DNA of 64,000 nt from Escherichia coli (GTDB lineage: Bacteria > Pseudomonadota > Gammaproteobacteria > Enterobacterales > Enterobacteriaceae). The position numbers were made by a program. Positions 48,001 through 51,000 of this stretch are shown in pieces. The stretch lies in the NCBI RefSeq assembly GCF_030013595.1, contig NZ_CP122768.1, one strand, 5' to 3'. Position 1 is the stretch's first letter. Each line of letters begins with the position of its first letter.

Positions 48001-51000
48001 ACTAATTAACCTAAATTATTTATTGAACACGAAAACAATGAAGGCCCCACCTCACCTCAGACTAAAGCCGACAATATCCTGAGTAACACTCTATCCAATA
48101 GTAAATAGTGGTTACACCAGTTATATTTACTGACTGACCTGTACCAGAGTTTTCTAATACAACGCTGACATGGTAAAGACATTAGTCTCCTCCGCAAGTA
48201 GCAGAGGAGACTATATGTACTCAACGATTAAGTCGTTCAGAGGTCAAAGTTAGGTGCGACACACAACGTTTTTCCCTCAATAACCGGTACAACTCTGTTT
48301 TGTTCATACAGTAAATCCAGTAACCAGTTGATTTTATCCTTTTTCCGGAAACGGTTCGGACCACGCTGTAAAATGTCATTTTTTTTCATACAGAGGATCC
48401 CCTTCTCAATACAATAGCTTTTTATCCAGTTGAAAAGTTCAAGCTCCTCTGGAATGAGTCGCACAGGTACGGTCAGGGCAGAGTTGTCAAAAGTTAACGG
48501 ATTAGACAACCGCACATACTCATTACCGTACCATATTGCTAATTCTCTCGCCATTTCTGCAGTGTAAGGGGAAATCTCCCCCTCTTCACCGCTCGAATGG
48601 TAAATAAGTCCTGCCAGTCTTGCCATATACTCTGCATTTTTAGCAGCATATTCCCGGCAATGTCTTAAAGGCCCCAATCCCCCCAGCTTCGATTCCACAT
48701 CATTGTAATAATCCGTCCAGATTCTGGCAGCCTGAGGAGAAAAGTGAAGGCAACGTCGTTCACCACTCATCGCCAGACTTTCATCAATAAGCTCATTGAT
48801 CCTCTCTTCAAACAAATCCTGATACTGTGATGAATAATTATCTCCGGTTATTATCCTTGTCCCCTGCGTTGATGTTGGTTGACACATCAAAAACCTTGCA
48901 TGATGTCCTGACGTTTTCACAATTTCTTTTTTTCGCGTACAAAAACCTTTGTGGTAAACATCAGGCTGAATCATCACCGATATCGTCAGTCTTGGCTCCT
49001 TCAAATTAATTCCGGGAGATGATTTCCTGTCGATGAAAAGAGAACCTCCATCCCACAAAGTGTTAATAATTCCCAGTTTACTCATGGCCCGGCTGTCAAA
49101 AATTACCCCCCTTCACTGGATACAAGAGCAAAAGAGCGATTGCTATCGGAGTAATATTTTAACATTCCCTCTATCGTTGTCTCATTAAAAATTGTTCGAC
49201 GTATCTGCGGCGGAACAGGAGGTTTATTCAGATGCGTTTCAAGCTCTGATTCTGTTGCCTTGTAATCTTTACCGGCACGAATCTCTTTATGAAATTTTGA
49301 TTCCAGCGCTTTTTGTTTTTGCTCCCATATTTCCTTTTCTGTACTGTAATTCTCAACCAGTTTCGCGTATTCATCCGCCAGGGCTTCATCCCTGAGATAA
49401 AATGCTTTCATAAACACTTTATCCACGGTCGTTTTCCTTTCACCGGAATCAGCCAGAATCAGAGAGTAAAGATTAACAGGCCCATGTAAATTTCCAGGTC
49501 TGCACACGTCAATCTGATTCTGACAGGCAATTGAGATCGCTGTTAATGCGGATGTTGCCACCATAGCCAAAGGTGCCTGTGTATTTTTTTGAGTTTCAAT
49601 TATTGCATTTCTCACCAGCGGTGGTAGTGCATATATCGGATAAGGATTTTCTGGTGCAAGTAAGCACATAAAAGCCTCTCTTTTCATTAATGGGTTAGTA
49701 AAATAGCAGCAAATCCCGCTACAATAGCGAAAATAGCTGCTATTCAGACCTGATGCTCTGAGAAATACAGAGCATTTGTAGATCTGATGTTTAATAAACC
49801 GATAAGGTTAATTCAGTGAAGACTGTATTATTCACCACGAAATATCATTCATATTTCTCATTCTTAATACCTCCGGAAATTATTTCACTAATACCTTTCC
49901 CCCGGTCTTTTCCCTTTCTCGAGAACCATAGTGTAAATATTAACGGCCCCACGTAAATTTCCGGGACTGCATACGTCAACCTGATTCTGACAGGCAATTG
50001 ACATCGCTGTTAATACTGACATTGCAACCAGAGTCAGAGGTACTTGTTTATTGTATTGAGCTTTAATTATTGCCTTCCCTATCATTGATGGTCATGCATA
50101 TACTGAATACGACATATCCGGTTTGATGTAAGGCATAAATGCTTCCTTTTTCGTAATACGTTTCGGTTATAGCAGCAATTACCGCTACAATAGCGACAAT
50201 AGCTGCTCTTTCAACAATGAATGCTGGAAATTCTGTTTATCAATTAAACTTCTGGCTAAATTGTTCTTATGCTTCTTTTTCCTCCTGAGGTGATCACGTG
50301 ATGACAAAAACTTATCTGCTCATGGTCATATCTGAAGAAAGCGTATGTCTCACTTCGTCATTAACACCTTTGACTGCTGATCTGGCAGGTACAGTATGTA
50401 AAGTAAGCCATTCGTCAATAGCTGATGAACGCCAGCCCACAGAACCACTACCAAGACGTACCGGCCTGGGGAAGGTTGCATCGTAGTATTTCGATAACGG
50501 ATTCATTTTTTCGTAAATTGTCGAACGAGATATACCTAACAATTGGCTCAGTTCAGGCATCCGTAAGATGCGTGAAGGAGTCCTGCAGTGTCCGGATTGA
50601 TCTGGCATTTTATCCCCCATAGTGTGGTGAACTGTCGTTACAGTTTGTATTCCCCGGGTAAATTTGTCTGCGTAAAAAAATGGGTTGAGAAAAAAGACAA
50701 TAAATAATTAAAAATCAATATGATAGAAAACGACAGCATTAGTGTTATTTTACTTTTCCCTTATCGCTGTCGATTCTCATTATCATTCATGGCAAAAAAA
50801 CAGCAAAAGAGGCCCTGGTAATGACTCCTGTCAGTAGTACATGTGTTTTCGATAAATGAACCAATGGCTTTTCGTGAATTTCCAGGGAGCGTAAAAAGCA
50901 AATCGTTTTCCGGGCAGGTCGTTTGATGTGAGTACGAAGTGTCAGATTGTTGCGCTCAATGCGCCGGGTAAATATCTTGCCGACAAGATGCTTATCCTGT

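Follow-up and report, generated by a model that had tools for sequence, protein, structure and literature searches.

The window analyzed here is a 64,000-nucleotide (nt) stretch of the Escherichia coli contig NZ_CP122768.1 (RefSeq assembly GCF_030013595.1). It carries an SpLE1/OI-43-like tellurite-urease-iha island of STEC and related E. coli, inserted at serW and adjoining the clpA side of that gene. The island backbone runs in the order integrase (53724 to 54926), 605-amino-acid (aa) open reading frame (ORF), degenerate IS1, alpA-like gene, 65-aa DUF3987 remnant, yfjI-like gene, yfjJ-like gene and AEP-primase/helicase gene, with the urease, tellurite-resistance and iha genes further inside. 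At the island/chromosome junction (55087 to 55330), the last 14 nt of serW, from 55087, are followed by RtT-like repeats, and the window contains no complete tRNA. The serW site is empty in two pig isolates from the UK whose chromosomal flank is 100% identical. A C6 run at 55264 to 55269 in the window is C7 in both of these isolates. The island is 99.99% identical to that of strain ETEC1746, relative to which it has two insertions: an IS1 copy at 26702 to 27470 and an IS66-family (ISEc8-like) element of ~2.4 kb at 41178 to 43618. The latter is also present in OkiPb01701, 08-00022, and ETEC1716.

Just upstream of the yfjI-like gene lies the 65-aa remnant of a DUF3987 N terminus (ORF 49888 to 50085, minus strand; Pfam E = 5.8e-8). 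The segment from 49877 to 50210 is a diverged (~73%) tandem copy of 49400 to 49744, the 5' end of yfjI, and is found in all related islands examined; a SNP private to the window lies within it at 49921. Deeper in the island, a 786-aa protein with AEP-primase and DEAD/Helicase_C domains (44338 to 46722, minus strand; PGAP "TOTE conflict system") has the same accession as in the O157:H7 SpLE1-like island, and it is probably iee, the published IS-excision enhancer (ECs1305). The AT-rich 605-aa ORF (51720 to 53537, plus strand), which has the integrase on one side and the degenerate IS1 on the other, is conserved in all related islands. It has no Pfam match on record in any locus, and in several assemblies it appears as a shorter, 542-aa product or is marked as frameshifted. 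A further window-private SNP, at 51700, lies 20 nt upstream of its start.

Homopolymer length also varies elsewhere in the island. A C8 run at 7602 to 7609, where ~420 nt separate two TerD-family genes, is C7 in ETEC1746 and C9 in OkiPb01701, and represents either a truly hypervariable tract or an assembly-error site. At 35892 to 35897, a G6 run lies 5 to 10 nt upstream of the ATG (35902) of a phosphoethanolamine-transferase gene, in the ribosome-binding region. This run is G6 in the window and in ETEC1746 and G5 in OkiPb01701, 08-00022, and O157 PV15-279, a difference that changes the start-codon spacing by one base.

The yfjI-like gene itself is divided between two ORFs, and its parts are as follows.

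48237 to 49669, minus strand: whole YfjI-family (DUF3987, putative helicase) pseudogene, delimited from the 100% identical PGAP-annotated copies in ETEC1746 and ETEC1747
49103 to 49687, minus strand: N-terminal fragment ORF, 194 aa if begun at the ATG at 49687 and 188 aa with the PGAP start (49669) (ORF reading, Pfam)
49106 to 49111, minus strand: G6 homopolymer of the coding strand, C6 on the plus strand (sequence; alignment with G7, G8, G9, and GGAGGAATA alleles; population counts)
49103 to 49105, minus strand: premature TAA stop, in frame through the deletion as GGG GGG TAA (sequence and ORF reading)
48237 to 49085, minus strand: C-terminal fragment ORF, 282 aa, -1 frame (ORF reading, Pfam)

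Around the tract the plus strand reads ...AAATTACCCCCCTTCACTGG..., with the C6 at 49106 to 49111, and the minus strand reads GAA GGG GGG TAA, the TAA (49105 to 49103) lying directly 3' of the G6. The N-terminal fragment ends ...ALVSSEGG* and contains a conserved SGERK[TS] P-loop-like motif, as judged by alignment with K-12 YfjI. The C-terminal fragment begins MSKLGIINTLWDGG. Its ATG (49085) is 18 nt past the TAA, and its frame is -1 with respect to that of the upstream ORF ((49687 - 49085) mod 3 = 2); read in that frame, the lesion is crossed without a stop (...RGVIFDSRAMSKLGIINTLWDGGS). Insertion of one G gives GAA GGG GGG GTA ATT TTT... and an unbroken frame whose product (483 aa counted from the first ATG, 477 aa with the PGAP start) is identical to intact YfjI family proteins of the WP_000335695.1 type. 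The single missing G is the sole difference from the 477-aa gene of O157 PV15-279 (1551 nt compared), and the site of this 1-bp deletion, relative to a G7 wild type, is the run at 49106 to 49111. An earlier note on this DNA had placed a -1 shift between the two halves of a DUF3987-type gene at exactly this plus-strand CCCCCC, followed by the stop, and had anticipated a continuous frame of about 476 aa after addition of one G; sequence and ORF reading agree on the site, the strand, and the direction of the shift, and the repaired protein has the length expected. Because G and C runs of at least 6 nt occur in the window as often as base composition predicts (8 G-runs and 11 C-runs versus 7.7 and 11.0 expected), the tract is not a statistical oddity.

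The family assignment made in that note also holds, for both halves as well as for the repaired protein. The latter gives a significant match to the whole of Pfam PF13148 (DUF3987; E = 5.1e-84, 283 bits against a cutoff of 27 bits), with residues 31 to 390 aligned to profile positions 1 to 363 of 364. The N-terminal fragment covers profile positions 1 to 154 of 364 (E = 5.6e-39), and the C-terminal fragment covers positions 168 to 363 and adds a C-terminal tail (E = 2e-38). PHROG 2373, "DNA helicase," is matched with E = 2e-62; searches with the repaired protein found no match in NCBIfam and no PDB chain up to E = 1. A helicase function in mobile elements has been predicted for DUF3987 domains (PMC5862659). 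[quoted passage not shown]

In the window, the frame that should encode the full domain is closed by a stop after codon 188 (codon 194 if counted from the first ATG). The break lies within a single domain, at DUF3987 profile position 154 of 364. Because the deletion cuts this domain midway, we expect function to be lost in the G6 allele, with neither fragment working. Judged by its reading frames, the gene is a pseudogene in this copy of the island. In different E. coli lineages the yfjI-like gene seems to undergo repeated decay, and a general decay of this backbone gene agrees with the existence of other alleles broken at other places: one, with a truncated 250-aa product, belongs to the UPEC/EcN haplotype and is found on 188 contigs, and another, with a 245-aa product, is found on 8 contigs (related loci L015 and L020; proteins P0003 and P0004).

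Of 5426 complete E. coli genomes, 1368 have a near-identical copy of the 1551-nt gene region, and all but two of the best matches are one base longer than the window. Tract length was counted with probes of 81, 82, and 83 nt centered on the tract, for which 99% identity can be reached by an exact match alone. Among the complete-genome records with this exact context, 747 are G7, 5 are G6, 2 are G8, and 1 is G9 (B-2207); off-length alleles make up ~1% of these copies (8/755), and ~99% have the in-frame length. An additional G6 copy occurs on the EcN_Sk haplotype. PGAP labels every G6 copy examined, and the G9 copy, as "YfjI family protein, frameshifted," and annotates the G7 copies at the same island position in O157:H7, OkiPb01701, 08-00022, ETEC1716, and ETEC4090 as the intact 477-aa WP_000335695.1. 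The normal, wild-type state is G7. Of the alternatives raised in the earlier note, the comparison with related strains that it had proposed favors the fixed pseudogene, with G7 as the wild type and G6 as a rare allele that is both recurrent and inherited.

Counts by exact predicted product, drawn from a collection of 15 billion proteins, give the same picture: 2 contigs for G5, 165 for G6, at least 1000 for G7, 29 for G8, and 1 for G9. The product-length spectrum thus has a single peak at the in-frame G7, with -1 as the commonest change. A spectrum centered on the wild type in which -1 is commonest is what one would expect of homopolymer slippage. The one observed here is consistent with a site that is prone to slippage and subject to weak purifying or neutral selection, and it is not switch-like. 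The codons of the tract, GGG GGG GTA, encode Gly-Gly-Val. The sister alleles in UTI89, 13P484A, and MRE162 read GGAGGAATA and use the run-free codons GGA GGA ATA for Gly-Gly-Ile, and K-12 YfjI has Glu-Ala-Gly-Ile at this position versus Glu-Gly-Gly-Val in the window. This codon comparison indicates that the G tract is incidental, a by-product of the Gly-Gly-Val codons.

The G6 allele occurs on at least five haplotypes or island backgrounds, and several isolates share it within a background.

Porcine TOTE-type island: the window, ETEC1746, ETEC1747, and ETEC4085
STEC-like TOTE-type island: L029, L031, and L040 to L042, which differ at the 47366 and 53950 SNPs
NERD/AAA-type island: PEC1011, L023 to L025, L030, and L032 to L039, together with many public-run contigs
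thrW island: HB37
EcN_Sk haplotype

The exact 188-aa G6 product is found on 165 public contigs, listed in 202 blocks, and in 173 of the 202 the longest contig is shorter than 20 kb. The exact 282-aa C-terminal product is found on 81 public contigs. The two ORFs adjoin each other on contigs of 11 to 21 kb that come from nine or more separate SRA/ENA runs; one such contig was found in at least 20 samples. From their length and their IS boundaries, we infer that these 11- to 21-kb contigs are typical short-read assemblies. Short-read-like G6 contigs that carry the TOTE gene differ from the porcine haplotype at two SNPs, 47366 and 53950, and assemblies with the porcine integrase allele, compared by their longest contigs alone, are mostly G7 or noisy long-read assemblies. 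Both G6 and G7 occur among almost identical porcine island copies, and none of the SNPs over 10.6 kb of this lineage partitions the G6 from the G7 copies. The window's private SNPs at 49921 and 51700 occur in none of the ~30 related loci compared, and over 23 kb the best match among RefSeq complete E. coli genomes reached 99.2%.

This distribution bears on whether the strain is truly G7, with an intact gene, and one G was dropped in a long-read consensus. Nanopore R9.4.1 consensus sequences are known to be weak at G/C homopolymers of at least 7 nt, and three of the five RefSeq complete genomes with an exact-context G6 (ETEC1746, ETEC1747, and ETEC4085) were assembled from R9.4.1 reads alone; ETEC1746 and ETEC1747 are also the closest copies of the window's gene and island. 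All three belong to PRJNA917806, which used Nanopore R9.4.1 only, with Bonito, Trycycler, and medaka and without short-read polishing (PMC10151945). They show further departures of the kind that a dropped or added base would produce: ETEC1746 has A9 where the panel has A8 (window position 26197), a homopolymer-error-like frameshift, ETEC1747 has a similarly error-like deletion in an A run at 53339, and the yfjI gene of ETEC4085 contains a second deletion. Two other genomes of the project, ETEC1716 and ETEC4090, with almost the same island haplotype, read G7. This can be taken as a sign that their G6 counterparts lost a base in assembly, but it also means that the same R9.4.1 pipeline called G7 at the identical site, so an error would not be systematic for this tract context. 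Long, noisy assemblies with the porcine integrase allele (L046 and L051; also L026 and L027) likewise carry G6 alongside other broken genes, yet L046 and the separately assembled ETEC4085 have in common a SNP and a deletion linked to G6, which suggests real clonal variants and clonal inheritance. In the window itself, the C6 at 55264 differs from the C7 of the nearest chromosomal relative and the C8 at 7602 differs from the C7 and C9 of two relatives, but the sequence is otherwise nearly free of homopolymer discrepancies: 4 of its 105 homopolymers of at least 6 nt differ from any of five panel genomes, two further G7 runs and a C7 run have the same length as in the panel, and its chromosomal flank is 100% identical over 8.6 kb to two independent pig-isolate genomes. 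Moreover, G6 is abundant on short contigs from many independent sequencing runs. The Nanopore-only origin of the closest G6 relatives is a real warning, outweighed by four observations; a genuine deletion is likelier than an error because G6 is common outside long-read assemblies, because the pipeline gave G7 elsewhere, because of the linked variants, and because the window is clean. We therefore regard a dropped base as unlikely. The G6 in the window is probably a genuine, heritable 1-bp deletion from G7, and the DNA of the strain itself would then carry it.

Two further readings accept G6 as real and assign it a role. In one, slipped-strand phase variation makes the G tract a reversible on/off switch for the island helicase; G7 would be a low-frequency contingency tract, with the helicase off at G6 or G8 and on at G7, modulating excision-replication or transfer of the ter-ure-iha island. 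Such a switch would account for the recurrence of G6 on many island backgrounds, and it is in keeping with the presence of lengths 5, 6, 7, 8, and 9 in public sequences, with the rise of G6 on several backgrounds, and with the coexistence of G6 and G7 among almost identical porcine islands. At a phase-variable locus, on and off states should both be common among relatives; here, 747 G7 records stand against 8 of other lengths, or ~1% of complete-genome copies, and the exact G7 matches include many O157:H7 and other STEC genomes, none of those listed being G6. A tract selected for switching should also be conserved or lengthened across alleles and homologs, and the yfjI tract is neither, which is why we do not favor selection for switching: the run is a by-product of Gly-Gly-Val codons and is missing from the sister alleles of UTI89, 13P484A, and MRE162 and from K-12 yfjI. 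It is merely 7 nt long, and typical contingency tracts are longer; phase variation is associated with surface and restriction-modification gene classes, and the product of this gene belongs to neither. The chance-level frequency of G and C runs in the window points the same way. Both the switch as such and the contingency-tract model of island mobility appear very improbable to us.

In the other reading, the G6 allele would still be functional, through recoding or as a split gene: by -1 ribosomal slippage, with tRNA-Gly shifting on G GGG GGU AA ahead of the stop, by transcriptional slippage, or by reinitiation at the ATG 18 nt downstream, with the two fragments assembling. The local sequence offers some encouragement, in that the P-site GGG can re-pair perfectly one base back with the stop codon in the A site and the ATG at 49085 follows the stop by 18 nt. 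But the arrangement that would require frameshifting is the rare, derived state and not the conserved one, and the break lies inside a single domain; the internal ATG is not preceded by any clear Shine-Dalgarno sequence. A programmed -1 site would combine a conserved arrangement with a stimulatory downstream structure, and no such structure was detected in the 96-nt RNA past the site (-16.1 kcal/mol versus a shuffle mean of -19.85; z = +1.38). Programmed frameshifting was rejected on the ground that these 96 nt fold less stably than shuffled sequence. We give a functional G6 allele hardly any credence, and nothing supports either a phase switch or programmed frameshifting.

We therefore favor, on the sequence comparisons above, the view that G6 is an ordinary allele, rare, recurrent, and inherited, and that it has left a fixed pseudogene. 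Of the three alternatives in the earlier note, this is the best supported; the slipped-strand switch is unsupported, and sequencing error is the less likely account. In the favored reading, replication slippage on a run of seven Gs, a run that would exist solely through the codons GGG GGG GTA, is the likely cause of the loss of one G. The deletion would bring a TAA into frame right after codon 188 in PGAP numbering, interrupt the single ATPase/helicase domain (DUF3987) at position 154 of its 364-position profile, and leave two fragments that are expected to be nonworking.

In itself the finding matters little: the gene is uncharacterized and belongs to the backbone of an integrative island that is widespread in E. 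coli. The finding does carry a warning for annotators, as the G7 site is a hot spot at which real -1 alleles and long-read homopolymer errors look alike. G6 versus G7 could also act as a marker of island lineages. If YfjI-family helicases are needed for replication or transfer of the island, then the G6 copies would be immobilized islands.

The closest known counterparts are the copies in ETEC1746 (NZ_CP122727.1, QDW99_RS14560) and ETEC1747 (NZ_CP122722.1, QDW91_RS17705), both annotated as "YfjI family protein, frameshifted" and 100% identical to the window over 1551 nt, G6 included. The identical allele is thus already annotated in RefSeq as a frameshifted pseudogene, and the event is an ordinary one that is already known. 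The neighbors of these copies are those seen in the window, namely, the integrase, 605-aa ORF, degenerate IS1, alpA-like gene, remnant, yfjJ-like gene, and AEP primase-helicase gene. The window copy has the two private SNPs (49921 and 51700) and the two extra IS insertions, and, whereas it lies at serW, the ETEC1746 island adjoins DUF2726/phoH genes and not clpA. WP_000335695.1 (477 aa), from the SpLE1/OI-43/48-like ter-ure-iha islands of O157:H7 and other STEC, is encoded at the same island position by a gene identical save for one G; that gene is G7, so its frame is continuous. More distantly, YfjI of the K-12 cryptic prophage CP4-57 (b2625) belongs to the same DUF3987 family, lies in the same int-alpA-yfjI-yfjJ order, and has 41% identity over 465 aa, but at 469 aa it is intact, with Glu-Ala-Gly-Ile and no G tract.

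AgaPH, a PriCT-DUF3987 protein of a pAgo-carrying mobile element, resembles the window gene in having DUF3987 and in lying near an AEP primase, and it has been proposed to be the replicative helicase of its element, acting with the adjacent AEP primase (PMC11724360). Unlike the window protein, it has an N-terminal PriCT domain and comes from a distant organism, and for the E. coli YfjI family the helicase role is a predicted one. The poly-G/C contingency loci of Neisseria, Haemophilus, and Campylobacter have a run within an ORF in which a change of one base toggles the frame. In contrast to these, the yfjI tract is short, ~99% in frame, and unconserved among alleles, and it lies in a gene of a class atypical for such switching.
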